Positions 1-23,902 of a stretch of DNA of 48,842 nt are shown one piece after another. Numbering within the stretch: the stretch's first letter is position 1; every line of letters starts with the position of its first letter. The translations under genes and the position numbers were made by a program. Origin of the DNA: Draconibacterium orientale (GTDB lineage: Bacteria; Bacteroidota; Bacteroidia; Bacteroidales; JAADGE01). The stretch is taken from contig DYMH01000006.1 in NCBI GenBank assembly GCA_020721645.1, positions 1-48,842 of the forward strand. The letters are read 5' to 3'. The notes beneath the pieces were generated by a model. That model worked only from the letters and a program-made list of their open reading frames with translations. It was not told the origin of the DNA and searched no databases.

Positions 1-7
1 TCCATAA

Positions 8-202
8 TCAGTGTTTTCTGCAAAAATAAATATTATTTATGTAATTAAGTCTAAGGATATTTTCTTTGTTTGGAGGTATAAAATAGTATAAATCAATCTG
101 AATGCCGAGTTGTGCCAAATGTTTTACCAAATTGTATGAATGCTTTTGCATTCCTCCAATACTCAAAGGAAAGATACCGTCAGTTAGGAAAGAGAGTTTC
201 AT
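8..202 (-). pseudogene. Truncated 5' fragment of a GT4 glycosyltransferase (gene-start stub)
   Basis: MKLSFLTDGIFPLSIGGMQKHSYNLVKHLA resembles a Bacteroidota GT4 N-terminus (P..GG.Q.H), but the ORF stops at 64 aa. Confidence 0.65.
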
Positions 203-240
203 TATTTGTATTTAGAGAATTGAACATTTATGCCTATATA

Positions 241-327
241 AAATATCTCTTAACCAAACTATTACAGATGTTTTATGATAGCCGAGCCGATGAATCCGGC
301 ACCGCCGGTGATGAGGATTTTTTTCAT
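241..327 (-). repeat. NAD-dependent epimerase/dehydratase 5' stub, copy 1
   Basis: Hand translation MKKILITGGAGFIGSAIIKHL**FG*EIF (Rossmann TGGAGFIGS) with in-frame stops; homologous to 1629-1724, 2924-3019 and 4421-4481. Confidence 0.9.
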
Positions 328-521
328 GTGTTTATATTTTATTTTGGCTACATGGAAGTCCACATTTAGCGGGCTTTGCAGCGTATTTTTACTTTTATCG
401 AATAATCATGCCGTTACTCATTTTTTTTATTATTTTTTGTGTTCGTGAGGGCTTCGCCGTTTTGTGATTTGCCAAAATCATGGACGTTTCATATTGTTTT
501 TGGTTACAAAATTTGAAATAA

Positions 522-1238
522 TTATTGGTTATAATCAACTTGGGCGTTTTCGATAAGGATATTTGTTTTTGACAGGGAGTTATCTGTGCCGATAATAAAA
601 TCATTTGCAATGGTTTTGATGCAATTTTGCAGATAATTAAAATCTTGTGTTTCGGTAAACCATGACACGCGCTCAAAAAGTTCAGTCGGGAAGTTGTTTA
701 TTCTTTGTTCGACATCAATTTCGTTAATCATTGCTTTTTCTTTGGCCGAAAAGAAAATGTCGGACCAATTGAACTTGTAGTTTAACGAAATATGTATGAT
801 ATCAAAAATATCCTTGGGTTCATCCCGGTTGAGGATTGCAGTTAATTTATTTGAAAGAATATTTAACGGTGTATCTATTTTTCCGAAATAGACTTCATTT
901 AAATTGCCGGCATGGTAATTAACGTCATTTACAAATTCGAGTTTTAAAAAAGTGTCGTTTTCTCGGATATAAAAGCGAGAATATCCTTCATAAATCAAGG
1001 TATTTTGTTTTTCTACCGGAAAGTTTTTGTATAATTTCTCCGAAAAATGTTCTATCAGTTGCTTATAATCGTTTCTGTTATTGACAAAAAAATCAAGGTC
1101 TTCACTGTATCGGTGATTGAGATAATATCGACCCAAAGCCGTTTCGCCGGTGAGGTAAAAGGGCATGTCGGCGGTTTTCCAAAATTTCAAAAACTTATCT
1201 TGCAGCAGGTATAATTTCTTGTAATCGTGTTTTAACAT
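522..1238 (-). CDS. AbiEii/AbiGii-family nucleotidyltransferase toxin
   Basis: LTGETAL...HRYSEDLDF, NKLTA...R.EPKDIFDI motifs; overlaps the upstream small ORF. Confidence 0.85.
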   Translation of the reverse strand: MLKHDYKKLYLLQDKFLKFWKTADMPFYLTGETALGRYYLNHRYSEDLDFFVNNRNDYKQLIEHFSEKLYKNFPVEKQNTLIYEGYSRFYIRENDTFLKLEFVNDVNYHAGNLNEVYFGKIDTPLNILSNKLTAILNRDEPKDIFDIIHISLNYKFNWSDIFFSAKEKAMINEIDVEQRINNFPTELFERVSWFTETQDFNYLQNCIKTIANDFIIGTDNSLSKTNILIENAQVDYNQ

Positions 1239-1497
1239 AAGAATATTTTTCCTTTAATGAATCTGTTCTTAATTTGCTTAGGAGAGTATCATTCAAAAGA
1301 TTTTTTATGGTTTCTGTATCAAATATTTTAAGTATTGTAAACCAAGGGAGAGATTCCAACATCTTTCGGAAAAGTGCTTTGAGGTCGTAATGCCCGGCAT
1401 GGTCTGTTTCTCCTTTAATTAGTTTATCAATTTCTTCGGGTGTGATGTCGTAATCCCACATCAGGAGGCGGTAGATCTCTTCTTTTTGCTTATCCAT
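1195..1497 (-). CDS. Putative antitoxin of the AbiEii-family toxin
   Basis: About 100 aa with an LMWDY motif, overlapping the toxin start; ATG at 1497 preferred because a TAnnTTTG box lies at 1516-1523. Confidence 0.7.
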   Translation of the reverse strand: MDKQKEEIYRLLMWDYDITPEEIDKLIKGETDHAGHYDLKALFRKMLESLPWFTILKIFDTETIKNLLNDTLLSKLRTDSLKEKYSYVKTRLQEIIPAAR

Positions 1498-1515
1498 CGT
1501 ATTTCTGTTTATATG

Positions 1516-1523
1516 CAAATATA
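1516..1523 (-). promoter_or_regulatory. Bacteroidota sigma-A -7 box (TATATTTG)
   Basis: Matches TAnnTTTG about 20 nt upstream of the antitoxin ATG. Confidence 0.55.
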
Positions 1524-1577
1524 CCTATTTTTGGAAATAGAATAATGCAAAAATGGCAATAATAATTGATGGATCAT

Positions 1578-1619
1578 TAATATTTCGTAACTAAACTCTT
1601 ATAAATGTTTTATAACTTC
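1578..1619 (-). repeat. Degenerate partial epimerase stub (EVIKHL*EFSYEIL)
   Basis: tatttcgtaactaaactcttataaatgttt aligns with tatttcgtaaccaaactcttgcagatgttt at about 2936-2965. Confidence 0.65.
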
Positions 1620-1628
1620 CGGCGAATA

Positions 1629-1724
1629 GTCTATTGCAAATGTCTCGTAACCAAACTATTGAAGATGTTTAATCACTGCCGAACCGATAAATCCGGCTCA
1701 GGCGGTGATGAGAATTTTTTGCAT
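1629..1724 (-). repeat. Epimerase 5' stub, copy 2
   Basis: MQKILITA*AGFIGSAVIKHLQ*FGYETFAID; ATG lies 4 nt after the stop of 1729-2877. Confidence 0.9.
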
Positions 1725-1728
1725 ACTG

Positions 1729-2877
1729 TTATATAAAAAGTGTTACTTTAAATTCTTCGCCGAATTCTTCAAATAAGACTGTTTTATGTCTTGACAGGGC
1801 TTCGGAGTAAACCATGGGTAATCCTCTTCCCAACTTGTCGATAAAATTGAGGTTTTCCATAAATTTTACGATGACCGGATTTACGGCATAAGATACGCCG
1901 TATTTCAGTTTATCGGGCGAAACGGTATTGGGCAATTTTCCGGGGCTGATGACTTCCAATCGGTTTTGAAAAAGGAATACTCTTATTTTTGAGCCGAAAA
2001 TTGAGTAATTTCTGTGGCAACTGGCATTTACAATAAGTTCTCTGAAAACTTTGTCAGGATATAGGTTTTCTTTGTTCACACGCTTGTTTCCGATAATGTC
2101 GGACGATTGCATTATGTTGTTCTTGATGATTGCTGTTGTCGTGTTTATTTGATAATCAAGATTCCCTTCAATGTTTTGCTTATCTATCAGTTCCGAATTT
2201 ATTTCGTTGCCCGCAAAATGGGCAAATGAAACGGATGAATTCAGCAAAAATTTTTGTGGATTGATTCCGAATATCAGCAGTCCGGCGACTGTTAAATTGC
2301 CTTCTGCTGATAAAATATCTGTATTTTGCAGTAAAACAGTTTTTTCATCTTCCGTCAGAATGTCGAAATTTAGATTGTAAGCGGAGAAATATGACGAAAG
2401 TTTTTGAAAGTTAAGATTTTTAACCGTGCTGTGGTCAACGGCTGTGGCATCGAAATGATAAACCCCGCTTTGTTGAAACAATCGCATGAGTTCATTGATG
2501 CTTGCCGTGCGGTTGGTTGAGCCGACACGGATATAAAATTTTGAATCATTTGCCTGATACGGTTTGTCTTTTCCTTTTGGTATTTCAACGATACCGATGG
2601 TTTTATTTTCGATTTCGATTTTTTGATATTTTATTTCTGCGGGGGGATTCACGTTGTTTCGGGCAATATTCATGCACCATTCTTCGTAGTTTTTTGACCC
2701 GGGAAGTCCCGAAATATCTCCGTTATCCTCAACGCCGATAAGTATTACGCCACCCGAAAGATTTGAAAATGCCACAATTTCTTTTGCCAAGGATTCGGGT
2801 TTTACATCGGCACTTTTAAATTCCAAAGATGAATTTTCGGATTGTTTGATCAGATCGTAGATTTGGTTTGTGTTCAC
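1729..2877 (-). CDS. AlbA_2 (Schlafen-like) domain plus HATPase_c_4 protein
   Basis: ENSSLEFKS...IVAFSN..GG.ILIGVED N-terminus; RELIVNA..HRNY...LEVISPG and GRG C-terminal motifs. Confidence 0.85.
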   Translation of the reverse strand: MNTNQIYDLIKQSENSSLEFKSADVKPESLAKEIVAFSNLSGGVILIGVEDNGDISGLPGSKNYEEWCMNIARNNVNPPAEIKYQKIEIENKTIGIVEIPKGKDKPYQANDSKFYIRVGSTNRTASINELMRLFQQSGVYHFDATAVDHSTVKNLNFQKLSSYFSAYNLNFDILTEDEKTVLLQNTDILSAEGNLTVAGLLIFGINPQKFLLNSSVSFAHFAGNEINSELIDKQNIEGNLDYQINTTTAIIKNNIMQSSDIIGNKRVNKENLYPDKVFRELIVNASCHRNYSIFGSKIRVFLFQNRLEVISPGKLPNTVSPDKLKYGVSYAVNPVIVKFMENLNFIDKLGRGLPMVYSEALSRHKTVLFEEFGEEFKVTLFI

Positions 2878-2923
2878 TTCTGTTTTTTGTTATTATTCGG
2901 TAAAATTATAAAAATAAACAATA

Positions 2924-3019
2924 TCAATTGCACAATATTTCGTAACCAAACTCTTGCAGATGTTTAATCACTGCCGAACCGATAAAGCCGGCTCCGCCGG
3001 TGATGATAACTTTTTGCAT
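2924..3019 (-). repeat. Epimerase 5' stub, copy 3 (open 31-codon mini-ORF)
   Basis: MQKVIITGGAGFIGSAVIKHLQEFGYEILCN*; ATG lies 5 nt after the stop of 3025-4314. Confidence 0.92.
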
Positions 3020-3024
3020 GCGTA

Positions 3025-4314
3025 TTAATAATTTTTGTTTATTTGAATCAAAAAATCACTCAGTTTCCATGCCTGAATGTGTTTTATACCGCCTTTTTCA
3101 TTAAAAATAAAATCATCCAAACTTACAATTATTTTCGGATAATTATCATGTATTGCCTCCAATGAGGAGTATTCTCTGTTTATTGTTATCTCTTCGGACA
3201 TTAGGTAAGCAACTTGAACGTATATTGTTTGGGTGTTTTTAACTGCAACAAAATCAACTTCTTTATTGCGAAGATATCCGACGTAAACATTAAAGCCGGC
3301 TTGGAGTAGTTGCAGGTAAACGATATTTTCCAATTTATAGCCTATGCCATAAGCAAAGCCGGAATACAAATAATTGTGATACGCCAAATCGTTGATATAA
3401 TATTTGTATGTTCCGGCAAGGGTTTCTTTTCCGTAAATATTATATTTTTCGACTTGATAAATAAGAAAACTGCTTTTCAAATAATTGATATAATTTGCAA
3501 GGGTTTCGTAATTTGTTCGCCTGTTTTTACTTTTAAAATAGTTTACAATATTATTGATTGATAACGGATTAGATGCATTGTTGATAAGAAAAGAAAAAAT
3601 ATCTTCCAATAATTTTGCATCTTTAATTTGGTAGCGTTGAATAATATCGCGAAGGAGTATCGTATCTTTAACCGCTGAAATGTAATGCCTTTTGGTTTCT
3701 TCGTTAGGCAGGTTAAACAATTCGGGCAAGCCTCCCGTGTTCAAATATTGTAAAAAACTTTGCTTCGAATTTTCAAGTTTTAAGAAAGAAATGTATTCGT
3801 TGTATGAAAAAGGGAAAATTTGAAATTGCACATATCGACCCGATAAATATGTAGATAACTCTCCGGACAACAGTTCAGAATTCGATCCGGTTATGAAAAT
3901 TTCAAACTCGCGTGTGTAATCCTGCGAATATGAATTGATTGTTTTTTCCCACGAAGTAACAGTCTGTATTTCATCAAAAAAAAGGTAAATTTTCCCTTCG
4001 GGTTTGATTTCGGAAATATACATTTCGACTAACTGCGATAAATCCGTATGCGATTGAATGAAGTCAAAATCTGTAAATTCTTTGTTGATGTATAAAATAT
4101 TATGAGGAGCTGTACCTTTGCCAATCAGGCTTAGGATAATTTGCCTCATCAAATAGCTTTTACCGGTTCTGCGCTGTCCGACAAGCACTTTAATGAGTTT
4201 GTTTGATATAAAATCGCCAATTTTAAGCAAATATTCTTTCCTGAGAAATCCTGCGTCCGGATTTCTTTTATTCCACAGATTGTATTTTTGAAGAATCGCA
4301 ATTTTATCAGACAC
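3025..4314 (-). CDS. AAA_14 ATPase with DUF4143 (PD-(D/E)XK-like) C-terminus
   Basis: Walker A GQRRTGKS, Walker B FFDEIQ, ITGSNS, LSGR, GGLP, LEN.V, EVDFV; TAATTTTG box at 4330-4337. Confidence 0.9.
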   Translation of the reverse strand: MSDKIAILQKYNLWNKRNPDAGFLRKEYLLKIGDFISNKLIKVLVGQRRTGKSYLMRQIILSLIGKGTAPHNILYINKEFTDFDFIQSHTDLSQLVEMYISEIKPEGKIYLFFDEIQTVTSWEKTINSYSQDYTREFEIFITGSNSELLSGELSTYLSGRYVQFQIFPFSYNEYISFLKLENSKQSFLQYLNTGGLPELFNLPNEETKRHYISAVKDTILLRDIIQRYQIKDAKLLEDIFSFLINNASNPLSINNIVNYFKSKNRRTNYETLANYINYLKSSFLIYQVEKYNIYGKETLAGTYKYYINDLAYHNYLYSGFAYGIGYKLENIVYLQLLQAGFNVYVGYLRNKEVDFVAVKNTQTIYVQVAYLMSEEITINREYSSLEAIHDNYPKIIVSLDDFIFNEKGGIKHIQAWKLSDFLIQINKNY

Positions 4315-4420
4315 AGCTTACAATTTTGTCAAAATTACAATATTTTCAGTTGTAACCAAAAATATTGCGTGTATTTTTTTACCATCTGACTTTTATGACA
4401 CCATCTTAATGTATTGTCTT

Positions 4421-4481
4421 GTGTTTAATCACTGCCGAGCCGATAAACCCTGCACCGCCGGTGATGGGGATTTTTTTTCAT
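4421..4481 (-). repeat. Epimerase 5' stub, copy 4 (frameshifted)
   Basis: ATG, an A8 run, then IPITGGAGFIGSAVIKH; ATG lies 3 nt after the stop of the DUF4143 remnant. Confidence 0.88.
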
Positions 4482-4484
4482 GTT

Positions 4485-4838
4485 CTATAATCTGAGAATA
4501 TACGGTTGGATATAGGATTGATTATCATGAGATTCAATCAGATTTTTATTGATGATGTAACTTTTTTCGATTTCCTTATCCTTAGAAAACTCAGTTATTG
4601 CTCTTATTTTGTTGTGATTTTTGAAGTCTTTATATTTCACTTCTACGGGAATTAACCTATTATTATTATAGTTTGAAATTATAAAATCAATTTCAACAGC
4701 GTCTTTTGTTTTTTAATAAAATATTTGATTTTGCTTACGGTTTTGTAATAATTGCAGATAGACGAAATTTTCGAAAATTTGTCCGTTATCAACTCTTATC
4801 GAGATGTCGTTGAAACTGTTGTAGATAATGTTTCGCAA
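4485..4838 (-). pseudogene. C-terminal remnant of an AAA_14/DUF4143 ATPase (absent from the ORF track)
   Basis: Hand translation LRNIIYNSF...NGQIFENFVYLQL...FY*KTKDAVEIDFII...IPVEVKY...QPYILRL*, one internal stop. Confidence 0.8.
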
Positions 4839-4905
4839 GTTTTTATAAGTTTTCAATTCGGATATTAAAAAATAGTCGTAAATTAGCAGAAAAATTAAGA
4901 TATTT

Positions 4906-5205
4906 ATGCAAACACAATTGACATTGAATATTGATAATCAAGCAGCCGAACTTGCAAATTATTATGCAAAAGAAAAAGGTGTATCCATAAACGAACTTTT
5001 TGAGAATTACATTCGTTTAATTGTTCTGAACGAGCAACTGTACAAATTGGGAACAGCCGAAATAAGCTCAATTTTTCTAAAATACAAACAAAATTTTGGA
5101 CTTAAAAAAACAAATTGGAAAGAACTTGATGAACATTTAAATCCCATAAGACATGGTTTGCCTGTTGATTTTAAATTTGACAGAGATATAGCAAATGAAA
5201 GATAA
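4906..5205 (+). CDS. Antitoxin (DUF6364 / RHH-like)
   Basis: MQTQLTLNID...A..YAKEKGVS..ELFENY; ends FKFDRDIANER and overlaps the PIN gene. Confidence 0.75.
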   Translation: MQTQLTLNIDNQAAELANYYAKEKGVSINELFENYIRLIVLNEQLYKLGTAEISSIFLKYKQNFGLKKTNWKELDEHLNPIRHGLPVDFKFDRDIANER

Positions 5206-5602
5206 TGTATTTATTGATACAAATATTTTGGTTTATTTCGCAACTGATAAAACCGAAAAACGAGATATAATATTAACTAAACTTGCTGAATGTGAGTATA
5301 GTTACATTTCAATTCAGGTTTTAAACGAATTCAATAATAGTTGTTTCAAAAAATCTTTATTGAAACCAGATGAAATTGAATTTGCATTAAACGAATATAC
5401 AAAAATGTTCAATGTTGTTATACTGAATATCGCAACGATTATTGATGCATTGCGATTAAAACAAAAATACGGCTATTCGTATTACGACAGTTTGATAATC
5501 TCAACAGCATTGCAAAATGATTGTAAAATACTTTATTCGGAAGATATGCAACATACACAGAAAATTGATGATAAATTGACAATTCTAAATCCATTCAAAT
5601 AA
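5195..5602 (+). CDS. PIN-domain (VapC-like) toxin
   Basis: FIDTNILVY, QVLNEF, YYDSLII, LYSEDMQH acidic motifs. Confidence 0.92.
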   Translation: MKDNVFIDTNILVYFATDKTEKRDIILTKLAECEYSYISIQVLNEFNNSCFKKSLLKPDEIEFALNEYTKMFNVVILNIATIIDALRLKQKYGYSYYDSLIISTALQNDCKILYSEDMQHTQKIDDKLTILNPFK

Positions 5603-5604
5603 AA

Positions 5605-5742
5605 AGGACTGTGACACATTTAGCCAATAATTACCGGCTTTTGTGCCAACTTGATACTTTGGTACCTCTAACGAACCTAAGTGCAAAATTGATGCGAAAG
5701 TGCTTTGAATGTGGCAACTACGGCTACAATTTTTCGATAAAC
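5605..5742 (+). mobile_element. Degenerate attC-like long imperfect palindrome after the PIN TA pair
   Basis: Arms tagccaataattaccg (5621-5636) and tggcaactacggcta (5712-5726); ends in G|ATAAAC, one mismatch from GTTRRRY. Confidence 0.45.
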
Positions 5743-5806
5743 ACATCGATAGGATTGTGTTAAGAGCCTACTGTTTTTTTTGCAAATAAAATTCTCGCTG
5801 TTTCAT
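5737..5806 (-). pseudogene. Probable N-terminal remnant of the disrupted AAA_14 ATPase
   Basis: MKQREFYLQKKQ*ALNTI followed by frameshifted IDVFI, resembling the segment just before an AAA_14 Walker A. Confidence 0.4.
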
Positions 5807-7038: not shown

Positions 7039-7948
7039 AATGCCTAAAATTTTTTGATTTCAGAAAGCCGACAAAGCGTTGGAATTTTACCCTTCGCTTA
7101 TCGGAAAAGATTGAAATAATTGCGGTAAAAAGCAGACCAAAGAAAAACAATGCATTGTATAAAACCAAATCTTTTTTTTGCTTAAATTTTCCAAAGAAAT
7201 AGCGCATGCCGAAAGAATTGTCTAAATCTAAATACATTCTAACGACCAAGTTTGCCGTACCTGTTCCGCCTTTGGATTGATTGTGAATAACCGTAGCTGT
7301 CGGAGTTTGGATAATACGTTTGCTTTCTGTTACAATAGATTTGCATAAATCGACATCAGATACATAAATAAAATAGGTTTCGTCGAGTTTTCTATTGTTT
7401 TCAAACAAAATCGCGGCACCGGCAGGTTGTTCAACGGGCTGATTTTCATTGAAATCCATTCCGAAACATGTGTATTTTCGATAAGATTCAAATTTGTTCC
7501 AATACTTTTTCGGTACGAAACTTTCGACAAACAAAGCAAAAGGTTTTGGAAATGTGCGTGTATAATTTTGAATCGAACCGTCCGGATTTAACAGAACGGG
7601 TGCAACTGCTCCGATTTGTTCGGAACTTTCGAAGGCGGAAACGAGATTTTGTATCGTGTTTTCGGTTATCGCGGCATCGGGGTTAAGTAAAAAAATGTAT
7701 TTTCCATTTGCAATTTCAATGCCTTGATTATTTGCTTTTGTGAAACCCTGATTTTTGTTGTTCAAAATCAATTTCAACTTTTCTATATGTTTGTTCAAAA
7801 GTTCCTGTGTGCCGTCTTTGGAATTGTTGTCCACAATAATGTGCTCGCAGTGTTGTCCGTATTTTGCAACAGATTCTATGTTTTTTTCTATCAAATCGGC
7901 ACAGTTGTATGTTACTGTGATTACGGAAACGGATATATTAGTGTTCAT
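7028..7948 (-). CDS. GT2 glycosyltransferase (WbbL-like)
   Basis: SVITVTYN, VDNNSKDGT, GFTKANNQG, LLNPDA. Confidence 0.92.
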   Translation of the reverse strand: MNTNISVSVITVTYNCADLIEKNIESVAKYGQHCEHIIVDNNSKDGTQELLNKHIEKLKLILNNKNQGFTKANNQGIEIANGKYIFLLNPDAAITENTIQNLVSAFESSEQIGAVAPVLLNPDGSIQNYTRTFPKPFALFVESFVPKKYWNKFESYRKYTCFGMDFNENQPVEQPAGAAILFENNRKLDETYFIYVSDVDLCKSIVTESKRIIQTPTATVIHNQSKGGTGTANLVVRMYLDLDNSFGMRYFFGKFKQKKDLVLYNALFFFGLLFTAIISIFSDKRRVKFQRFVGFLKSKNFRHFEL

Positions 7949-8867
7949 TCCAAATTTCTTCTAATTTTTTTGTTGTCGTATTTTGATTTTTTAAAAAGGG
8001 ATTTACTGCTTTTTTCAGTATCAATTTTAAATATACTGAAAAAAAACTAATGCCGGTGCTTGACAGTCCTTTATTCATTTCCATAAAAAAATTTGCCGAC
8101 TTTGCTTTTATCATAAACAAACCGAGTGCGTAAAAATAGTTTTTCTTTTGTTCGTTATAAATTGCGGATTTTTGCAATAATGTGTAGATATTGACTAATG
8201 CTTTAACCATTGCATTGTCCATTTTTGCTTGGTTTACTGTCATGCTTGTTTTCCGTACTCTAACCATCGACAATGTTTCCGGAATATGGGCAAATCGAGA
8301 ACCGGATAAAGCCATTCGAAGCCATAAATCCCAATCTTCCAACTCACGGTATGTAGGGTTAAAATTACCGACAGCATTCACTTTTTCACGCCTCACCATT
8401 ACGGAATTGACGTGCAGAAAGTTCCCAAACCACAGATTTTGCAATACATCACCTTCGAAAACAGGAAACTCTGCAGGAAATGTATTTTGAATATCATTTT
8501 CAATAAAATTGATTGATTTTGAGTAACATACATCAATTTCAGGATGCGAATCCAAATAAGCGGATTGTATTTGAAGTTTATCGGGCAAAATTATATCATC
8601 TGAATCCAAAAAAACCAAATATTCTCCGGAACTGTTTTCTATTCCGGTGTTTCGGGCACCGGCTAAGCCTTTGTTTTTTTGATAGATGTATTTTATTGAC
8701 GAATATTTTTCGAGATAGGGTATTACGATTTCTTTTGTGTTGTCGGTTGATTCATCGTCTATTATAATAATTTCATATTCAGACATTGTTGATTTCAAAA
8801 CAGAATCTATTGCATCCGGTAGGTAGTGAGCAGTGTTGAAGGTGGGTATTATGATTGAGTTTTTCAT
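7938..8867 (-). CDS. GT2 glycosyltransferase
   Basis: SIIIPTFN, IDDESTD, GLAGARNTG, FLDSDD, EDWDLWLR. Confidence 0.95.
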   Translation of the reverse strand: MKNSIIIPTFNTAHYLPDAIDSVLKSTMSEYEIIIIDDESTDNTKEIVIPYLEKYSSIKYIYQKNKGLAGARNTGIENSSGEYLVFLDSDDIILPDKLQIQSAYLDSHPEIDVCYSKSINFIENDIQNTFPAEFPVFEGDVLQNLWFGNFLHVNSVMVRREKVNAVGNFNPTYRELEDWDLWLRMALSGSRFAHIPETLSMVRVRKTSMTVNQAKMDNAMVKALVNIYTLLQKSAIYNEQKKNYFYALGLFMIKAKSANFFMEMNKGLSSTGISFFSVYLKLILKKAVNPFLKNQNTTTKKLEEIWNEH

Positions 8868-9122: not shown

Positions 9123-10412
9123 TTATATTAATATCTTATCAAGTATAAATTTATAAGCCGGAATTATTGATATTTCGATGTCGTTAATTTTTTCGTATGC
9201 TTGCTCATCGTAGGTAACAATGACTGCTTTTTTTGTTTGTAAATACTCACATGCAGTTACCAAACCTTTTATTTCTCGTTGCTTAGTATCGGAGTTTTGA
9301 ATAGAATAGCTCACTTGTACAGGCAAAAATTTGTTTTTTTCTTGGATAATAAAATCACATTCCACTATGTTTTTAAAATAGCTGATTTCTTTGTTTTGCT
9401 TTAGTATTTCTAAGGCTATTAAATTCTCTAAAAGTTTTCCTTTGTTTTCGGAGAACGAATAATCTAAGGCTGTTAAAATTCCGTTATCTACTGAATATGC
9501 TTTTTTTTCGCTTTTTACTTGTTTTATTTCGGAAAAATCAAATTTATTGATTACAAGTGCTGTAAAAGTTGATTGAATAAAGTCTAAATATTCGTACAAA
9601 ACATTGTTACTTATTTTATAACCTATTGATTTAATGTCGTTATGAATTTTGTTAACTGAAATAGGCTTAGTAACTTGCTTTAATATTTTTTTGATAAAAA
9701 ATTTTAAAATAGCGGGGTGCGAAATATTATATCTTTCAATTAAATCTTTATATATTATTGTATTAAAATAATCTTGTAATTTTCGGGTTTTAAGCTCATT
9801 ATCTAATTTGCAAATTTCGGGAAAACCTCCGTAGAAAAGAAACTTGTCAAAAAGTGATAATATTTCAATTTTTTGTTTTGTACCGTAATATTCTGCTTTT
9901 GTATCGTGAAAAGATAGAAACTCACTAAAACTGAGAGGGTAAAGTGTATAACTGATAGTTCTGCCTCGCAATTCGGTTGCAATTTCGGTACTTAATAACT
10001 TTGAATTAGAGCCGGTTATAAAAATATTGGTCGTTACGGTATCGAAAATACGTCTGACAAATTTTTCCCAACCGGGAACATTTTGAATTTCATCGAAAAA
10101 AAAATAACAATTATCAAGTTTATTTTGCGGAAATAATTCCATAAATGCTTGTAAAATCAAGTCTAAATCGGATTGTTTTAAATTTAAGCGTTCGTCTTCA
10201 AAATTTATGTAAAGAATTTGATTTTTAGGGATTTCATTTTTTAAAAGTTTTTTAATTGTTTGATAAAGTAAAAATGTTTTCCCGCTCCTTCTCACACCTA
10301 TTACAGTAACAATAATACCGGTATTTATCGGCAAATCTAATTGCCTGTTATAACTATTTTTCAAGTTATCGGTCTGAAAATTAATGATTATATTTTTTAT
10401 AATATCTTTCAT
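9123..10412 (-). CDS. AAA_14 ATPase with DUF4143 C-terminus
   Basis: GVRRSGKT, FFDEIQ, ITGSNS, LRGR, GGFPE, LLEN, ECDFI. Confidence 0.9.
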   Translation of the reverse strand: MKDIIKNIIINFQTDNLKNSYNRQLDLPINTGIIVTVIGVRRSGKTFLLYQTIKKLLKNEIPKNQILYINFEDERLNLKQSDLDLILQAFMELFPQNKLDNCYFFFDEIQNVPGWEKFVRRIFDTVTTNIFITGSNSKLLSTEIATELRGRTISYTLYPLSFSEFLSFHDTKAEYYGTKQKIEILSLFDKFLFYGGFPEICKLDNELKTRKLQDYFNTIIYKDLIERYNISHPAILKFFIKKILKQVTKPISVNKIHNDIKSIGYKISNNVLYEYLDFIQSTFTALVINKFDFSEIKQVKSEKKAYSVDNGILTALDYSFSENKGKLLENLIALEILKQNKEISYFKNIVECDFIIQEKNKFLPVQVSYSIQNSDTKQREIKGLVTACEYLQTKKAVIVTYDEQAYEKINDIEISIIPAYKFILDKILI

Positions 10413-10531
10413 GGCGTAAAGCTACAAAAGTTTCGCCAATTTAACGAAAGTTTTAGCAAAAATTTCGTTGTACTGACTAAACTTTTGCGGGTAAATTATA
10501 AAAGACTGATATACAATTCTTCATTCCGGGT

Positions 10532-10627
10532 TTCATAATCTGTAAATGACTTTTTTAAAACATAATCAAGAGCATCGGGCAGATAATGGGACGTGTTGTA
10601 AGAGGGGATTATGATTGAGATTTTCAT
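10532..10627 (-). repeat. 5' stub of the GT2 gene at 7938-8867
   Basis: MKISIIIPSYNTSHYLPDALDYVLKKSFTDYE versus intact MKNSIIIPTFNTAHYLPDAIDSVLKSTMSEYE; starts 5 nt after the stop of the previous GT2. Confidence 0.9.
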
Positions 10628-17402: not shown

Positions 17403-18704
17403 TTAAAAAATTTCATTGAAAACTTTATTTGCATATTCAAATGAAGAAAAATCGACAACTTGTTTTACAGAATTGTCTGAGTATTTGTTGTATGCTTCTT
17501 TCGATAATTCAAAAATCAATTTTATCCCAAATGCCAAATCATGCGAATCTTTTAATTTTGCTTTATATCCATTATAATTATTAATAACCATATTGTTTAC
17601 AATCCCCATATCAAAACCAACGACGGGTGTTCCGCATGCCAAGGCTTCCGTTACCATCATCGGTCCGGAATCTTCTATTGAAGTATTTATAAAAACATCA
17701 GACGCTTGATATAATAGTGATAACAAACGGTAGTCTTTAATGTAGTTGATATGTTTTTTTTGAAAGGGTATATCGTTAAAAGAATTTGAAATTTTTGTTG
17801 AAACTATTAATACTTCTATTGTATCTCTTTGCTCATCAGTAATGTTTTTATTAAGAATATTTAATGCGTCTATTAAATATTCAAAACCCTTTCTTTTTTC
17901 AATAGCATTTTGGCACCCCATTAGCATATAGAACTTATTTTTGTCTAAATTAAAAATATCTTTAGCATAAGTCCTATTTCTGTTATGCATAATCTTTGTA
18001 TCAATTAAGCTGTTTATATTAAATATTGTAGTTTGATTTTTATAGATTTTAGATAAAGAGGCTTGTTGTATAGTCCAACCCGAACCGGTTAAAATCTTAA
18101 AATTGCCTAATTTTGCATTTTTGTATTTAGTTTCAAAATTGATTTGTGCCAGCTTTTTTTTGTCTTTATTTATTATAGCAGGACAATTTTCATCGCAACC
18201 GGTAATGTATCCTTTACAATCCCATGCATAATGACAACCGCCGGTAAAATGATTCATGTCCACCGTAATGTTATATACAGCAGCCTTTGAAAATTGTTGA
18301 ATATACAATAAATCAGTAGAATTCATAAAGCCATATGTTATTCCGCTAAAAATATATTCAGGTATAAATCCAATTTGTTTTATAACTTGATCAACAGAGA
18401 TATTGACACTTGTTTCGTCTTTACTAAAAAAATAAAAATTAGAATCGAACGAAATATTATTTTTTTTTGGCGGCTGGAAGTAATTTTTTAGTTTAATCCA
18501 AATACGAATAAGTAAACTTCTTTTTATATTATTAATTGGCTGATATTGAATGACAATATTATCATGTTGTGTTTTGTGTTTAACTAACATTGCTACTATA
18601 TGACCCTTATCCACAAATAATTGTGCAACCTTAAAAATATATTCAGCAGCTCCGTTTGTGTCGCTTGTAGAAAGTAATAATATTCGTTTCTTTATATCTC
18701 CCAT
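17403..18704 (-). CDS. GT4 glycosyltransferase (WcaC-like)
   Basis: FTGGCHY, RKG, EALACGTPVVGF. Confidence 0.9.
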   Translation of the reverse strand: MGDIKKRILLLSTSDTNGAAEYIFKVAQLFVDKGHIVAMLVKHKTQHDNIVIQYQPINNIKRSLLIRIWIKLKNYFQPPKKNNISFDSNFYFFSKDETSVNISVDQVIKQIGFIPEYIFSGITYGFMNSTDLLYIQQFSKAAVYNITVDMNHFTGGCHYAWDCKGYITGCDENCPAIINKDKKKLAQINFETKYKNAKLGNFKILTGSGWTIQQASLSKIYKNQTTIFNINSLIDTKIMHNRNRTYAKDIFNLDKNKFYMLMGCQNAIEKRKGFEYLIDALNILNKNITDEQRDTIEVLIVSTKISNSFNDIPFQKKHINYIKDYRLLSLLYQASDVFINTSIEDSGPMMVTEALACGTPVVGFDMGIVNNMVINNYNGYKAKLKDSHDLAFGIKLIFELSKEAYNKYSDNSVKQVVDFSSFEYANKVFNEIF

Positions 18705-19939
18705 TCTACGGGTATTTTAAAATAACCATTTTCTCTATCGCCTTCCTTAAATTCTTCTTGTGTTAAATTAATAATGTTTAGATTTATTTTGTCGCTCGGT
18801 AAATCTAATATTTTAATTTTAGGAATATCTAATGCCAAACCGATTTTATATAAATTTGCAATTAATAGATTACCTGGTATTTTAATAGTCCAAGTTTTAA
18901 TTCCTATAAAATCCAACTGTCTTCTGTTTATAAATATTAAATTATCGTACTTATCTTGTATTGAAAAATTCAAACGTGCGTTTTCTTGATAATAGTCGTT
19001 TCTAAGGGTTATGTTTACAAAAATCTCTTGCTCTGCGAAATATTCAATCACAACATTCTTATCTTTATCTTTCAGTTCAACTTTAATTATTTGTGTCGCT
19101 TTACTCTCATCTTGTTTGTAGAATATAGTTGAAATATTTTGGTCAGTTGAGTTTGTATTTAAATATTTAGTTAAAGTTTCGTCTATTCCCCCTTCAAAAA
19201 TCAGTTTTCCGTTTTGCAAAACCACGCCCTTGTTACACAACGCCTTTATACTCCCCATATTATGACTCACAAACAACACAGTCCTCCCCCCTTCCCTCGA
19301 AACATCCTGCATTTTTCCGATGGCTTTTTTCTGAAATTCGGCGTCGCCCACTGCAAGCACTTCGTCCACCACCAAGATTTCGGGTTCTAAATGGGCAGCA
19401 ACGGCAAAGGCGAGGCGAACGTACATTCCGCTGCTGTAACGTTTTACGGGTGTGTCCACGTATTTGGCTACGCCGGCAAAGTCGATAATTTCGTCGAATT
19501 TGGATTTTATTTCTCGTTTAGTCATGCCGAGGATTGCCCCGTTAAGGAAAATATTTTCTCTACCTGTCAATTCGGGGTGAAAGCCGGTGCCTACTTCGAG
19601 CAAACTTGCAATACGACCGTTTACTTTTATGCTGCCGGTGGTTGGTCCGGTAACGCGGGAGAGTATTTTGAGCAAAGTTGATTTTCCTGCTCCGTTTTTG
19701 CCAATGATTCCGAGTATTTCGCCTTTTTTTACCTCTAAGTTAATGTCTTTGAGAGCCCAAACCAAGTCGCCGTCCACAGTATCGAGGCGGTTTGTTTGCC
19801 CGATTTTAAGTGTCGGATCTTCCTTGCCGCGAATTTTTGCAAACCATCGGTTGAGGTCGTGGCTGAGTGTTCCGGTACCTATTTGCCCGAGGCGGTACTG
19901 TTTGGAAAGGTTTTCTATTTTAATGGCAAGGTCGGACAA
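18692..19939 (-). CDS. wzt: Polysaccharide ABC transporter ATP-binding protein with Wzt C-terminal domain
   Basis: GKNGAGKST, GFHPELTGREN, YSSGM, VDEVLAVGD, VSH; TTG start. Confidence 0.95.
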   Translation of the reverse strand: MSDLAIKIENLSKQYRLGQIGTGTLSHDLNRWFAKIRGKEDPTLKIGQTNRLDTVDGDLVWALKDINLEVKKGEILGIIGKNGAGKSTLLKILSRVTGPTTGSIKVNGRIASLLEVGTGFHPELTGRENIFLNGAILGMTKREIKSKFDEIIDFAGVAKYVDTPVKRYSSGMYVRLAFAVAAHLEPEILVVDEVLAVGDAEFQKKAIGKMQDVSREGGRTVLFVSHNMGSIKALCNKGVVLQNGKLIFEGGIDETLTKYLNTNSTDQNISTIFYKQDESKATQIIKVELKDKDKNVVIEYFAEQEIFVNITLRNDYYQENARLNFSIQDKYDNLIFINRRQLDFIGIKTWTIKIPGNLLIANLYKIGLALDIPKIKILDLPSDKINLNIINLTQEEFKEGDRENGYFKIPVEWEI

Positions 19940-19973
19940 AATAATTATGAATTATGAGTTATGGATGGTGGGG

Positions 19974-19981
19974 CAAAAATA
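19974..19981 (-). promoter_or_regulatory. TAnnTTTG promoter box upstream of wzt (repeated at 21010, 23841 and 26941)
   Basis: TATTTTTG about 30-35 nt upstream of TTG in all four copies. Confidence 0.6.
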
Positions 19982-20040
19982 GTAAAAATTTTGTTTATTG
20001 TCGTTTCTGCGATGAAGTCTTATGGTAAAATTGTGTCTGT

Positions 20041-20457
20041 TTAATGGATGAACGGATTTATTATTTGTAATCTGTTCTCAATAATTTGTTGATGTTGCAT
20101 GTCTTCTGTGTATAGGATTGAGCAATTATTTTGTAATGCAGCAGAAATAATTAAACTATCCCAATAAGAAAAACCGTATTTTTCTTTTATTTTTAAACAC
20201 AGTTTTATGTCAGAATAATTTAACGGAGTAACGTTAAATAATTTAGATATTTCAATGATATTGTTCTTAATATTTTTGTGTTCAATTTTATTTTTAAACA
20301 GAACTGAATAAAATTCGTTGATAACTTGTACACTTACAAAAAATGTGTTTCCTAAGTTAAGAGAAAACAGCTCTTTAATCTTTTTTTGTTTGTCATTATT
20401 CTGTAGAATGTATCCATAAACAAGAATATTTGTATCAATAAAAATATTATCTTTCAT
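20041..20457 (-). CDS. PIN-domain (VapC-like) toxin
   Basis: FIDTNILVY, QVINEF, WDSLII, LYTEDMQH; homolog of 5195-5602. Confidence 0.92.
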   Translation of the reverse strand: MKDNIFIDTNILVYGYILQNNDKQKKIKELFSLNLGNTFFVSVQVINEFYSVLFKNKIEHKNIKNNIIEISKLFNVTPLNYSDIKLCLKIKEKYGFSYWDSLIISAALQNNCSILYTEDMQHQQIIENRLQIINPFIH

Positions 20458-20701
20458 AAAGTTCGTCCCGAGAATAAGTTATAAAATTGATACATTGAAT
20501 GGGATTGTTGATAAAATTAGGTATTTTTTTTAATGGTTTTTCGTTTTTGGATTTTTCGGACACGGAAGTAATTTTAATGTCATATTTAAAAATAATGAAT
20601 TCCAATAAATTAGTAAATTCCTTTTCAGCATCCTTATCTAATTTGGAAAAGAAAAGTTGCGGATTTTCTTTCAGCATGTTGATATCAATAGTTTTATTCA
20701 T
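20447..20701 (-). CDS. Putative antitoxin of the PIN toxin
   Basis: 84 aa ending SRDELYER, overlaps PIN start; TAAATTTG box at 20718-20725. Confidence 0.75.
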   Translation of the reverse strand: MNKTIDINMLKENPQLFFSKLDKDAEKEFTNLLEFIIFKYDIKITSVSEKSKNEKPLKKIPNFINNPIQCINFITYSRDELYER

Positions 20702-20782
20702 GGTCGGTTTTTTAATGCAAATTTACGACGAAAATTTAAATAAAAAACATCATAATAATTTTTCCCTTTTTAAAAACGGTGT

Positions 20783-21031
20783 CTTTGAGAGTTCGTACAT
20801 ATTCGCCGTCCCCGGTATCGAGACGGTTGGTTTGTCCGATTTTAAGTGTCGGGTCTTCCTTGCCGCGAATTTTTGCAAACCATCGGTTGAGGTCGTGGCT
20901 GAGTGTTCCGGTACCTATTTGCCCGAGGCGGTACTGTTTGGAAAGGTTTTCTATTTTAATGGCAAGGTCGGACAAAATAATTATGAATTATGAGTTATGG
21001 ATGGTGGGGCAAAAATAGTAAAAATTTTGTT
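20783..21031 (-). repeat. wzt 5' stub with promoter and UTR, copy 2
   Basis: Near-identical to about 19745-19995; first 54 aa identical, similarity ends after LKD. Confidence 0.95.
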
Positions 21032-21104
21032 TTGAGCGAGGGTTTTATAAGAAACTGTTTTCTTTTCATTAAACAGAGAATATTCTCCTTTTGTCTGCAA
21101 AATT

Positions 21105-21296
21105 GTGTTTGTCGGGTTCTGAAACCCACTAAGCAAGTTGGTCGGCATGTTTTTCGATGATTTCGCAGCTGCCATCGGTGCTGCTGCCGTCGATGATGAT
21201 GTACTCGAAAGTGGTAAAAGTTTGCGATACAACGCTTTCTATGGTCTTTTGCAAGCCGGCGGCGTTGTTGAGGTTTATTGTTGAGAGTTTCGGCAT
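21105..21296 (-). repeat. GT2 (KLSIITVN) 5' stub, long version
   Basis: MPKLSTINLNNAAGLQKTIESVVSQTFTTFEYIIIDGSSTDGSCEIIEKHADQLA*WVSEPDK; ATG lies 5 nt after the toxin stop. Confidence 0.92.
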
Positions 21297-21301
21297 TAAA
21301 T

Positions 21302-21922
21302 TCATTTATTTTTAATAAAATCTGTAAGCGTATTTTCAATAAATATTTTTACTTCGTTCCAATCTGTCGGAATAAGCATATCCGGTTGTTCGTCTTCATC
21401 TGCATCTTTAAAATATGTGAGACTTCTTAAAACTAAAAAAATAGAACCTTCGGGATATTTTTGCATATAAAAATCTAATATTTCTTTTAGATTATATCGT
21501 TTCAATAAAAAGTATAAATCTATAAAATCTTTTTTTGTTCCTCTGCCTGTAATTGCGGCAATTTTCATTGCAGCAATATCTTTTATACCGGCGAGTAATA
21601 AATTATCTTCAGTAATTGCATTTTCTAACCATGTATAATGGTAATTAACAAAATCTACTTTAATATTATTAACAGAAAAGATATTAATATTTGTTGAATT
21701 TTTAAGAACAGTTATTTTTCCTACCTTTTCTAATTCTTTGGAAAAGGTAATAAAATCATTTTCAATCAGTCCAAAAAAATCTAAATCTATTGATTTTCTG
21801 TGTCCTATTTGTAGAGCCAATGCTGTTCCGCCTACAAGTCTTAATTTAGAAAACTCTGTAATGCTCTGTATTTTTTTTAATATATCCAGTGTGTCCTGTT
21901 CAATTGTTTTGTAGTATAGCAT
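21302..21922 (-). CDS. AbiEii-family nucleotidyltransferase toxin
   Basis: LVGGTALALQIGHRKSIDLDF, AAMK..AI..RG.KKDF.D. Confidence 0.92.
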   Translation of the reverse strand: MLYYKTIEQDTLDILKKIQSITEFSKLRLVGGTALALQIGHRKSIDLDFFGLIENDFITFSKELEKVGKITVLKNSTNINIFSVNNIKVDFVNYHYTWLENAITEDNLLLAGIKDIAAMKIAAITGRGTKKDFIDLYFLLKRYNLKEILDFYMQKYPEGSIFLVLRSLTYFKDADEDEQPDMLIPTDWNEVKIFIENTLTDFIKNK

Positions 21923-22182
21923 AAGAATTTTTCTTTTGGTATTTTAGATAATAATGAAATAAAAGTTATGGATTTTTCATCCAAATCTCTGGCATTCATG
22001 GCGATTTTCGCTATTTCATCTATTCCGTAGTAATTGTATATAATATCCCAATCGTTTATTAAGCCGTAATCAAGAACATTTGTAATAATCGTTTTCTTAC
22101 TTCTTTCAAAGTCGAGATTATTTCTATTTACGTCCCAAAACAGATGTTTTGAAAAATTGTTTATATCAAATTCTTTGCTCAT
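21877..22182 (-). CDS. DUF6922-like antitoxin
   Basis: HLFWD motif; ATG at 22182 gives 101 aa, collinear with 14969-15274. Confidence 0.8.
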   Translation of the reverse strand: MSKEFDINNFSKHLFWDVNRNNLDFERSKKTIITNVLDYGLINDWDIIYNYYGIDEIAKIAMNARDLDEKSITFISLLSKIPKEKFLCYTTKQLNRTHWIY

Positions 22183-22206
22183 AAAATTGATTTTATTTGT
22201 AATTTC

Positions 22207-22303
22207 CTGTAAAAATTTGTATAGCAATGATTTCAATGGTTTTTATCAGTCCTTCGGCATTGTTAAGGTTTACGGTGATTATTGAGAGTTTTGGGGTATG
22301 AAT
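22207..22303 (-). repeat. GT2 5' stub (start codon degraded to ATT)
   Basis: IHTPKLSIITVNLNNAEGLIKTIEIIAIQIFTG. Confidence 0.9.
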
Positions 22304-22310
22304 AAGTAAA

Positions 22311-22922
22311 TTAAAAATTTAGTGCAGTTTCGGTTAAGAAGTTTTTGATTTCGTTTTCAGTGGGTTTTTCTTTCAAAAATTCAACAGGTTCCGAATGGTC
22401 CATATCTTCAAAATAACAAAGTTGCGCTCGGAAAAGTTTTTCGGAAAACAAGTCGCCGTAAATAGCACTAGCTTTTTCAGATATTTGATTTACAGTATGA
22501 TAACTTTTAAGTATGTAGTATAAATCAACATAATCTTTCCATTTCGATCTTCTGCCTAATGCGTAAGATTTCATGGCTGCCAATGTTAATAAGTCGGGCA
22601 ATTTGAACACGTCTTCGTATTTGCAGGGCGTATCTATGTGGAATGGGTATTGGAAAAAAGTAAGTTTTACTTTGTTCAGTATCAGGTTTAATTGTTCGGA
22701 TACACGACGTGTAACTGTGTGGTTGTATCCGGACTCTGAAATTTTTGAGATAATCTTCGGGATTTTGAGGTCTGTTTTTTTGAACATGTCAAAATCAATG
22801 GATTGTCGGTGTCCGATATGCAAGGCAATTGCCGTGCCGCCGACTAAGTAAAATTCGCGTTTAAAGCCGGACATCAGCGGAAGTAATTGTACTTGTTTTT
22901 GATTAAATATCTCGCTATGCAT
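22311..22922 (-). CDS. AbiEii-family nucleotidyltransferase toxin
   Basis: LVGGTAIALHIGHRQSIDFD, AAMK.YALGRR.KWKDYVD. Confidence 0.92.
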   Translation of the reverse strand: MHSEIFNQKQVQLLPLMSGFKREFYLVGGTAIALHIGHRQSIDFDMFKKTDLKIPKIISKISESGYNHTVTRRVSEQLNLILNKVKLTFFQYPFHIDTPCKYEDVFKLPDLLTLAAMKSYALGRRSKWKDYVDLYYILKSYHTVNQISEKASAIYGDLFSEKLFRAQLCYFEDMDHSEPVEFLKEKPTENEIKNFLTETALNF

Positions 22923-23187
22923 GGTTTTTAAAATAGAGTGAAAAAAGGTGATGTATTTCGGGATAAAAATTTCCTATTTTTCTATCCTGCATTGAAAAAA
23001 ATACCGATGCTACGGTTTTTAATCCTAAGATGTGAAATAATTTTCTTATTGTTGCCATTTCGCCGTAATTCAAAATAAATTCCACCAAAACTTCGTGGCT
23101 GATATTTTGTTTTTCCGCTTCGGGAGTATACCAAAATAAATCGGCGTTTTCGGCAATAAATTGTTTTATTTCGGGGGTGTTTTGCAT
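22915..23187 (-). CDS. Putative antitoxin (LFWY motif)
   Basis: ATG at 23187 (MQNTPEIK); overlaps the toxin start; TATTTTTG box at 23232-23239. Confidence 0.75.
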   Translation of the reverse strand: MQNTPEIKQFIAENADLFWYTPEAEKQNISHEVLVEFILNYGEMATIRKLFHILGLKTVASVFFSMQDRKIGNFYPEIHHLFSLYFKNHA

Positions 23188-23260
23188 TGATTTTATTATT
23201 ATTGCGAGCTTGGGTACTCGAAAGTATCCCGCAAAAATACGAAATTTTATGTTTTTTTTC

Positions 23261-23666
23261 TTAATCAAAACTCTTTATTTGGATTAAAATATCGCGAAAT
23301 GTTTCTCCGAATTTGATGTTGTTGGTTTTATAATCTGAAATTTCGGATTTTGGTTTGTAGTTTTCGAGAATTTTCGCAAGTTGGACGGTATTTTCGGGTT
23401 CAAAGAAAACCACATTTCGGATGATTTGTTCGCGATGCACCCGAATGTCCGATAAAATAAGCGATTGATTCATCGCTTTTACATCTTCAACCACCGTACT
23501 CCAACCTTCAAAAAGAGACGGTTGAATGATGGCTTGCGAATGTTTCATGAGTGCCAATTGGTCGATTCTGTCAATAAATCCGAGAAAACGAACATTGTCT
23601 TGAATATTATTTTGTAAAACATAGTTTTGCAATTCGTTGAAAAATTCAGGGTTTCTGTAATCGGAT
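23261..23666 (-). pseudogene. 3' fragment of a GT4 glycosyltransferase, copy B
   Basis: DYRNP...FLGFI...QPSLFEGWSTVVED...SDI.VHRE; no N-terminal domain, fused to a wzt stub. Confidence 0.85.
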
Positions 23667-23667
23667 T

Positions 23668-23862: not shown

Positions 23863-23902
23863 TTGCAGGGATTTTATTTTTGTTTTTACATCTTCCCATT
23901 AT

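Follow-up and report, generated by a model that had tools for sequence, protein, structure and literature searches.

Background

Arrays of genes separated by a recurring sequence are known from several systems. Integrons hold cassette arrays, and those of chromosomal integrons can be rich in defence genes; integrative elements and cis-mobilisable elements (CIMEs) accrete in tandem at att sites in gene ends, where a known integrase acts at a single fixed position and leaves short conserved cores; and island hot spots can hold arrays punctuated by partial tRNA genes. Here we describe an array on a contig of Draconibacterium orientale (Bacteroidales; assembly GCA_020721645.1, contig DYMH01000006.1, positions 1 to 48,842), which was analysed over its whole length of 48,842 nt and is called the window below. 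In this array, toxin-antitoxin and candidate-defence genes alternate with dead stubs of a sugar-epimerase gene, four in number and each covering its first ~100 bases, which look like scars of repeated insertions.

Like an integron, the array consists of one-directional, mostly single-gene units with defence or toxin-antitoxin cargo and a recurring punctuation, but the window has no intI (no PF00589 match), its boundaries are coding 5' ends without an attC-like hairpin, some of its cassettes have a promoter-like box of their own, and the punctuation is a pseudogene fragment of the target. With CIME accretion it shares cargo arrays split by repeated copies of one gene end, in units without their own recombinase, whereas the repeats in the window are long and target-dependent and there is no linked integrase. 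As in the arrays with partial tRNA genes, fragments of the target gene mark successive insertions, although here the target is a protein-coding 5' end and there is no integrase-bearing element.

Insertion with long target duplication, for which Furuta, Abe and Kobayashi (2010, PMC2853133) cite Nobusato et al. 2000 (Gene 259:99), offers another comparison: in their account, restriction-modification units insert with a long, variable duplication of the target in the absence of any other mobile element, start or stop sites of translation often lie within the repeats, the cases are single events, mostly in naturally competent Proteobacteria, and the repeats measure 26–65 bp among the rows listed. 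The window resembles the cases as presented there in that its units lack a transposase or integrase, are flanked by direct repeats, apparently of target sequence, of more than 30 bp and of varying length, which often span a start or stop codon so that the neighbouring gene survives, and carry selfish or defence cargo. It differs from those cases in its cargo (toxin-antitoxin pairs, PDC-S01 and a Schlafen-type gene), in its setting in Bacteroidales polysaccharide loci, in having repeats of up to 253 nt, in that events appear to be stacked four to five deep on one gene start with the later ones falling in dead copies, and in being known here without an empty site. PDC-S01 is a very abundant, unvalidated candidate defence gene encoding an ATPase domain fused to a member of the PD-(D/E)XK superfamily, and is among the most abundant defence candidates detected (PMC13356809, PMC12988326).

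Four dead starts of one epimerase gene

The window is contig C84, in its entirety, of a 285-contig metagenome-assembled genome (MAG; G000). A back-translated GGAGFIG pattern matched it four times, always on the minus strand (287–306, 1684–1703, 2979–2998 and 4440–4459), where 0.01 matches are expected in 48.8 kb and none of 100 shuffles reached four. A repeat search of the window returned one 56-nt family of four copies, spaced 1397, 1295 and 1461 nt apart, plus a nested partial copy. Both searches bear out the first-pass annotation of the sequence, which had placed epimerase starts at 327, 1724, 3019 and 4481 with a nested partial between them (1579–1621 in our search). An independent Logan contig from a single sequencing run (X1) spans 464–4979 with zero differences and even depth, and the array is therefore not an assembly chimera.

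The stubs are derived from coding sequence, being 78–94% identical to the 5' end of an intact 303-aa orthologue, L006, on contig C45 of genome G008 from the same family (Table 1; identities were measured over the first 84 nt of L006). Measured against L006, the stub sequence breaks off at about +60 in stub 4, about +85 in the nested partial, about +90 to +99 in stub 1, about +93 to +100 in stub 3 and about +105 in stub 2; when an independent stub in an activated-sludge contig (L017, see below) is counted along with the nested partial, five of the six breaks lie between about +84 and +105. Most breaks are narrowly placed, as had been noticed from the sequence and taken there to imply a preferred crossover region; stub 4 breaks off earlier. 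The direct repeats between neighbouring stubs are 45–101 nt long. No fragments of the epimerase body were found between the stubs, and the stubs have no consistent hairpin (DNA-fold z-scores of -0.12, +0.45, -2.41 and -1.67).

Stubs 1 and 2 have in common a TAG at codon 23 and a GAG at codon 26, neither of which is present in stub 3, the nested partial or L006. As these are shared derived changes, either an already dead stub was copied, or gene conversion between the two stubs spread the changes. Duplication of a dead stub would be independent of selection for an intact epimerase, and would explain why even the last copy of the epimerase is dead. That the most downstream copy is dead and is followed by the start of a glycosyltransferase family 4 (GT4) gene had already been read from the sequence, and agrees with the stop codons of stub 1 and with the GT4 fragment at the contig end (Table 1).

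The parent gene

The protein encoded by L006 is a sugar epimerase/dehydratase of the short-chain dehydrogenase/reductase (SDR) type which scores below all NCBIfam equivalog cut-offs (best GalE, 185 bits vs a cut-off of 262). No gene with the N-terminus of the stubs is present in the 285-contig assembly of G000 and, as the contig itself begins at position 1 of the window, it has no further sequence on that side, which agrees with the suggestion of the first-pass annotation that the target gene had been lost or lay outside the window. The orthologue is also absent from two related genomes, G004 and G005, where the best paralogues are 30–31% identical. Global scans with exact patterns, which miss decayed stubs, found the motif in six genome contigs and six metagenome contigs, always as a single copy; wherever enough sequence was available the gene reads intact, with the L017 stub as the sole exception, and the sequence used for L013, L016 and L019 ends before the gene does. 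A family-level search of 25 genomes yielded no further stubs. The repeat of the array equals the start of a gene of which L006, L012, L014, L015 and L018 each have one intact copy, and where the downstream gene is visible (L012, L014, L015 and L018), a GT4 gene homologous to the fragment in the window directly follows the intact epimerase. The remainder of the window's own GT4 gene was not found in the genome. The family has L006 as its sole intact orthologue, and here a homologue of the putative antitoxin of the window takes the place of GT4 at 12 nt past the stop codon; this contig is 1040 nt long and has the epimerase ATG as its very first bases.

A probable origin by serial insertion with long target duplication

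We consider it probable, at roughly 0.6, that the array was built by serial insertion with long target duplication. Self-contained toxin-antitoxin or candidate-defence units would have gone in one after another, at least four or five times, and always into the first ~60–105 nt of one gene at the downstream end of the surface-polysaccharide locus, a ~303-aa SDR-type sugar epimerase/dehydratase gene that is normally followed directly by the GT4 gene. Each insertion would have left a copy of the target start (about -5 to +60..+105) at either side of the inserted unit. In so packed an operon, only duplications spanning a start or stop codon would keep both neighbouring genes intact, and these would be the ones to survive. 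A dead stub may then have been a harmless place to land and have supplied homology to the events that followed; one or more of these would have duplicated a stub that was already dead, the epimerase body being lost; an IS-like element (IS, insertion sequence) would then have cut the GT4 gene. The molecular step may have been a staggered joining of incoming DNA, or the single-crossover integration of an excised circle made up of one cassette and one stub.

The same layout at other target genes

Stubs flanking inserted units are not confined to the epimerase. A 5' stub of a glycosyltransferase family 2 (GT2) gene precedes the second AAA_14-DUF4143 gene of the window and the intact GT2 gene (Table 1), with a direct repeat of 83–105 nt at 72–76% identity. 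Further along, an antitoxin and PIN pair (20041–20701; Pfam) lies between a 5' stub of an ATP-binding cassette (ABC) transporter ATPase gene and the gene itself, with a repeat of 253 nt at 95% identity; the same gene has a second stub, the two stubs being at 92–95% identity, and between them are two DUF6922/AbiEii-like pairs and a 3' fragment of a glycosyltransferase family 1 (GT1) gene. At both the GT2 and the ABC site, the downstream copy of the repeat is the start of the intact gene itself. The region 19700–26750 as a whole is a second, larger array, with its two ABC-ATPase 5' stubs, one antitoxin/PIN pair, four DUF6922/AbiEii-like pairs (one of them broken) and two copies of a GT1 3' fragment (23261–23632 and 26366–26725).

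Elsewhere in G000, contig C22 holds two single-gene inserts with flanking repeats of 117 nt (99% identity) and 163 nt (89%), both of which are 3' ends of the upstream gene. In the polysaccharide locus on contig C34 of the relative G004, the order is GT2 stub A, a MNT and HEPN pair, stub B, an AAA_14-DUF4143 gene and the intact GT2 gene; A and B share 96.5% identity while B has only 73% identity to the intact gene, which suggests an insertion into a dead copy. The same locus has a homologue of the array's AAA_14-DUF4143 gene (AAA1) between two copies of a 121-nt repeat that corresponds to the start of an intact GT-like gene. In these other arrays the breakpoints differ by 45–75 nt. Across all sites the repeats range from 45 to 253 nt and differ in sequence: they are 5' ends for the epimerase, GT2 and ABC ATPase genes and for the GT2 and GT-like genes of G004, 3' ends in L027, L091 and C22, and non-coding in L040, L043, L046 and L076. 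As both length and sequence vary from site to site, the repeats appear to derive from the target and not from the element. The claim of the first-pass annotation that the epimerase start is a special target of these cassettes is not supported, as other gene starts have been used in the window and in G004 (and see the survey below). The array is not dedicated to the epimerase, and the general rule is a long duplication of whichever gene boundary was struck; the array is a stacked and decayed case of a general process of insertion with duplication that has riddled this polysaccharide locus.

Several other arrangements were seen at these loci. The two repeat-flanked inserts of C22 bracket a 1281-aa gene (C22:4400–12050), and one of the C22 repeats looks as if it were the 3' part of a gene of integrase type. 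Both in the region of window 4485–4856 and in G004 (L059 10904–13730), an AAA_14-DUF4143 gene of a second type lies directly upstream of the AAA1-type gene with a stub between the two, although this stub comes from the epimerase in the window and from a GT-like gene in G004. On G000 contig C156 (5150–7650), non-coding repeats of ~115–125 nt with inverted ATCTTA/TAAGAT motifs flank both a small gene of the GxxExxY type and an AAA_14-DUF4143 homologue, and a similar repeat block surrounds another GxxExxY gene on G004:C34 (L059 14926–16167).

Flanking repeats at homologues of the cassette genes

We collected 61 loci with homologues of the cassette genes (28 AAA1, 6 AlbA_2 and 27 AbiEii), with 1.5-kb flanks where the contig allowed, and searched these flanks for the epimerase start. 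The pattern TGG[AS]GF[IVL]GS was found at none of the 61 loci, and the expectation that homologues of the cassettes would also abut epimerase starts elsewhere is therefore not supported. Flanking direct repeats of local sequence are a different matter: of the 28 AAA1-homologue loci, 25 had both flanks, and eight of these (L024, L025, L027, L040, L043, L046, L048 and L051) have direct repeats of 60 nt or more on their two sides. With the same settings, such repeats were found at 14 of 600 random open reading frames (ORFs) of 300–600 aa from G000, drawn from 708 eligible (Fisher p=4e-7), and two of these 14 positives are themselves AAA_14-DUF4143 genes. In G000 the AAA queries matched three genes, and each of them lies between direct repeats. 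At the AAA loci the repeated sequence is the 5' or the 3' end of a gene, the whole of a 187-aa gene that has been duplicated, non-coding DNA or a block of tandem repeats.

Gene content of the array

From the overview presented in Table 1, the order on the minus strand is AAA_14-DUF4143 remnant, stub 4, AAA_14-DUF4143 gene, stub 3, AlbA_2/HATPase_c_4 gene, stub 2 with the nested partial, a small unclassified gene with AbiEii, stub 1, and the GT4 start at the contig end. Pfam confirms the identities that had been given to the AbiEii, AlbA_2/HATPase and AAA_14-DUF4143 genes. The DUF4143 remnant has no Pfam match, and was nevertheless rightly named, since residues 260–300 and 325–375 of a full AAA_14-DUF4143 protein of G004 (L059:10904–12031) match it with 76% and 69% identity, respectively. 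The AAA_14-DUF4143 genes, with AAA_14 and DUF4143 both found by Pfam, match the PADLOC PDC-S01 profile with E=7.6e-139 and 2.5e-109, and the PADLOC matches of the AlbA_2/HATPase_c_4 gene are weak, to pAgo-associated and PDC-S50 models. The putative antitoxin has no Pfam, NCBIfam or PADLOC match, and the label AbiE pair therefore rests on the toxin and the gene order; homologues of this small protein sit ahead of AbiEii homologues in G004. A promoter-like TAnnTTTG box of their own precedes two of the four cassette starts that were checked; TATATTTG lies 26 nt upstream of the putative antitoxin ATG, and TAATTTTG 23 nt upstream of the start of the AAA_14-DUF4143 gene.

Table 1. Features of the array and of the related sites in the window. 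Identities are to the 5' end of the intact orthologue L006.
Feature	Position	Strand	Remarks
End of multicopy IS-like repeat	1–54	.	stops the contig and cuts the GT4 gene
GT4 glycosyltransferase 5' fragment, 64 codons	8–202	-	Glyco_transf_4 E=7e-4, below Pfam cut-off
Stub 1	232–327	-	ATG at 327; three in-frame stops; 83% identical
Interspersed MITE-like repeat	328–500	.	fills the 195-nt gap from AbiEii to stub 1
AbiEii-family nucleotidyltransferase toxin gene	522–1238	-	PF08843 E=4e-11; PADLOC AbiEii
Putative antitoxin, 100 aa from ATG	1195–1497	-	overlaps the toxin start
Nested partial stub	1579–1621	-	epimerase +43 to ~+85; ancestral GAG/GAA codons kept
Stub 2	1620–1724	-	ATG at 1724; two in-frame stops; 88% identical
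Schlafen/AlbA_2 and HATPase_c_4 gene	1729–2877	-	Pfam SLFN_AlbA_2 and HATPase_c_4; stop 4 nt before stub 2 ATG
Stub 3	2920–3019	-	ATG at 3019; best-kept, open 31-codon frame; 94% identical
AAA_14-DUF4143 ATPase gene	3025–4314	-	Pfam; PADLOC candidate PDC-S01 E=7.6e-139; stop 5 nt before stub 3 ATG
Stub 4	4421–4481	-	ATG at 4481; one extra A shifts the frame; 78% identical
Remnant, 3' third of a second AAA_14-DUF4143 gene	4485–4856	-	stop 3 nt before stub 4 ATG
DUF6364 and PIN toxin-antitoxin pair	4906–5602	+	Pfam; opposite strand, bounds the array
GT2 5' stub	10520–10627	-	breaks after codon 32; upstream of second AAA_14-DUF4143 gene 9123–10412, then intact GT2 7938–8867
ABC-transporter ATPase 5' stub	20736–21032	-	-57 to about +195 of gene 18692–19939
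Second ABC-ATPase 5' stub	23662–23863	-	to about +150

Pfam searches of the cassette genes found no transposase, integrase or other mobile element within the inserts, and there is no PF00589 integrase in the window; the genome has nine PF00589 matches, all on other contigs and unlinked to the array. Two repeats at the downstream end of the array are later additions. One resembles a miniature inverted-repeat transposable element (MITE); BLAST returned 58 pieces of it, spread over more than 20 G000 contigs, and it has a depth of 85–585 in contigs of the sequencing runs. The other, the IS-like end at positions 1–54, matches 32 other G000 contigs at or near their ends with 91–100% identity (most 100%), and a Logan contig of 764x depth overlaps 1–53; being multicopy and at contig ends, it shows that the GT4 start runs into an IS-like end. 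The terminal sequence appears to belong to a high-copy insertion sequence left out of the assembly. At the other side of the array, window 5590–5796 has 4–10 times the depth of its neighbourhood in all four sequencing runs, yet is single-copy in the assembly.

Related populations and an independent stub

The activated-sludge contig L017 carries an independent epimerase stub that is ~70% identical to the stubs of the window, with many differences at third codon positions; its frame is open for 31 codons, it breaks off at about +90–96, and it is followed by a different AbiE-type pair. It is the only epimerase-specific support for the epimerase start as a special target. A 38-nt leader (TTTCCAAAAATAGGTATATTTGCATATAAACAGAAATA) before the AbiE unit of the window (1500–1537) recurs in L017 with 37 of 38 matching positions (254–291), and with two mismatches over 32 nt it was also found in 2 of 400 genomes of the order (L096 and L097), there at polysaccharide loci and ahead of the longer antitoxin of the L017 type, with no stub identified. 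We considered this leader as a cassette boundary and rejected it, as its occurrence without an identified stub suggests a toxin-antitoxin promoter or operator instead. It is nearly identical ahead of non-homologous antitoxin genes in distant hosts, and is possibly an operator.

In G005, from another genus of the same family, a 1561-nt contig corresponds to about 2995–4556 of the window and ends inside stub 3, with an AAA protein that is 97% identical. Contigs of three other samples carry this variant, and in runs X4 and X9 contigs end at stubs 3 and 4; populations like G005 and G008 match window 2991–5663 at about 98% identity. The G005 contig was therefore not accepted as an independent insertion, but is the same array in another bin or population. 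In X4 the variant of the AAA cassette has a depth of 40x vs 11x, which may mix organisms. A joint of 143 to 1669 in run X9 was not trusted, as it has 30 letters on its shorter side at a likeness threshold of 90, and the low or missing cover of 622–2898 in X9 and X12 is not readable as absence of the cassettes.

How the array may have grown

Several observations weigh against serial insertion with long target duplication. No isogenic or same-species empty site was found in the family, in the global genome and metagenome scans or in the contigs of the sequencing runs, so that the term target duplication is founded on the orthologues and, at the GT2 and ABC sites, on the downstream copy, which is intact. 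The repeat copies are only 72–96% identical, and hence either the events are old or one copy arrived with donor DNA. The control for the AAA1 repeats comes from one genome only, related loci are not independent of one another, and two of the eight positives (L048 and L051) are from one genus. Little enrichment was seen for the AbiEii homologues, where 25 of the 27 loci were analysed, 21 have 500 nt or more on either side, and a single one of these 21 carries a repeat that reaches 60 nt (L076; p=0.4), with repeats of 39–58 nt at three further loci (L071, L088 and L091), and none of the three AlbA_2 loci with both flanks has flanking repeats. The stop codons of three different cassette genes, those before stubs 4, 3 and 2, fall 3–5 nt ahead of the next stub ATG, a tidy boundary which the model does not predict. 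Finally, at least four events in one stretch of ~100 nt, together with the break in L017, suggest a stronger preference for the site than would be expected of random events with selection as their filter.

The last two of these points would suit site-specific accretion, in which a recombinase encoded elsewhere recognises a site ~90–100 nt into the epimerase gene and each cassette brings a replacement 5' end, so that the array grows like tandem integrative elements or CIMEs at an att site in a gene end. The clustering of five of the six breaks, the recurrence of this position next to an AbiE-type pair in the distant, AT-richer host of L017, and a TAYGAA that coincides with the break or precedes it by a few bases in the 5' stubs of three genes (epimerase, GT2 and the GT-like gene of G004) are all in its favour. 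A CCG opens the insert directly after the duplicated segment in 4 of the 13 junction sets compared (CCGGTTTTT, CCGTTTTT, CCGAAAT and CCCGG), three of these four inserts being ATPase cassettes; both junction patterns are no more than suggestive. However, the 13 junction sets share no conserved core or motif and the stubs no consistent hairpin, the window lacks an integrase and the integrase matches of the genome are unlinked to it, different targets were used within one locus, the breakpoints within the other arrays differ, and the epimerase start is missing from all of the homologue loci; we therefore regard accretion by a dedicated recombinase as unlikely.

Comparably improbable, in our view, is growth by homology alone, in which after one founding event circles of cassette and stub pop out and re-enter by a single Campbell-type crossover, or a donor stub-cassette-gene segment recombines through its left arm in the recipient gene start and so adds units. 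The nested partial, which follows directly on the +105 end of stub 2, resembles the joint of a re-inserted circle of cassette plus stub, or else an older illegitimate joint that came with the AbiE unit; the derived changes common to stubs 1 and 2 point the same way, and in other samples as in G005 and G008 contigs stop within stubs, as they would if a stub had several continuations. Such shuffling cannot create new cassettes or new targets, though, and stretches of ~90 nt at 70–90% identity, with a longest run of ~14 nt shared by L017 and stub 3, would be poor substrates for homologous recombination; nor do the contigs of the four sequencing runs list any stub-to-stub deletion or go-back joint of an excised circle. 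An artefact, either an assembly chimera at the conserved Rossmann motif or trivial decay of tandem full-length paralogues, is very improbable: the genome is a MAG of 285 contigs and several related contigs end in stubs, but the single-run contig reproduces the array without differences and at even depth, the repeats reach well past the GxGxxG motif, stubs 1 and 2 share stop codons, and no pieces of the epimerase body remain between the stubs.

Implications for Bacteroidales polysaccharide loci

Beyond serial insertion with long target duplication at this one locus, a further and improbable reading is that surface-polysaccharide loci of Bacteroidales host an integrase-free cassette system, in which long duplicated gene ends would act as portable recombination arms by which toxin-antitoxin and defence units are added, stacked and lost, and in which PDC-S01 genes, 32% of whose close homologues are repeat-flanked, may insert themselves by making the staggered breaks. 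If serial insertion with long target duplication holds, a route known from a few restriction-modification cases would be a major way for toxin-antitoxin and candidate defence genes to enter operons of the Bacteroidales, and their stacking into arrays without an integrase would be a little-studied way of building defence islands. It would also explain the short 'pseudogene' starts that litter polysaccharide loci and the breaking of metagenome assemblies at these points, and would mean that insertions leave a record of scars that can be dated. The molecular step is open to testing on the many repeat pairs that are nearly identical, and the finding raises the question of whether PDC-S01 is a defence gene or a selfish mobile gene.

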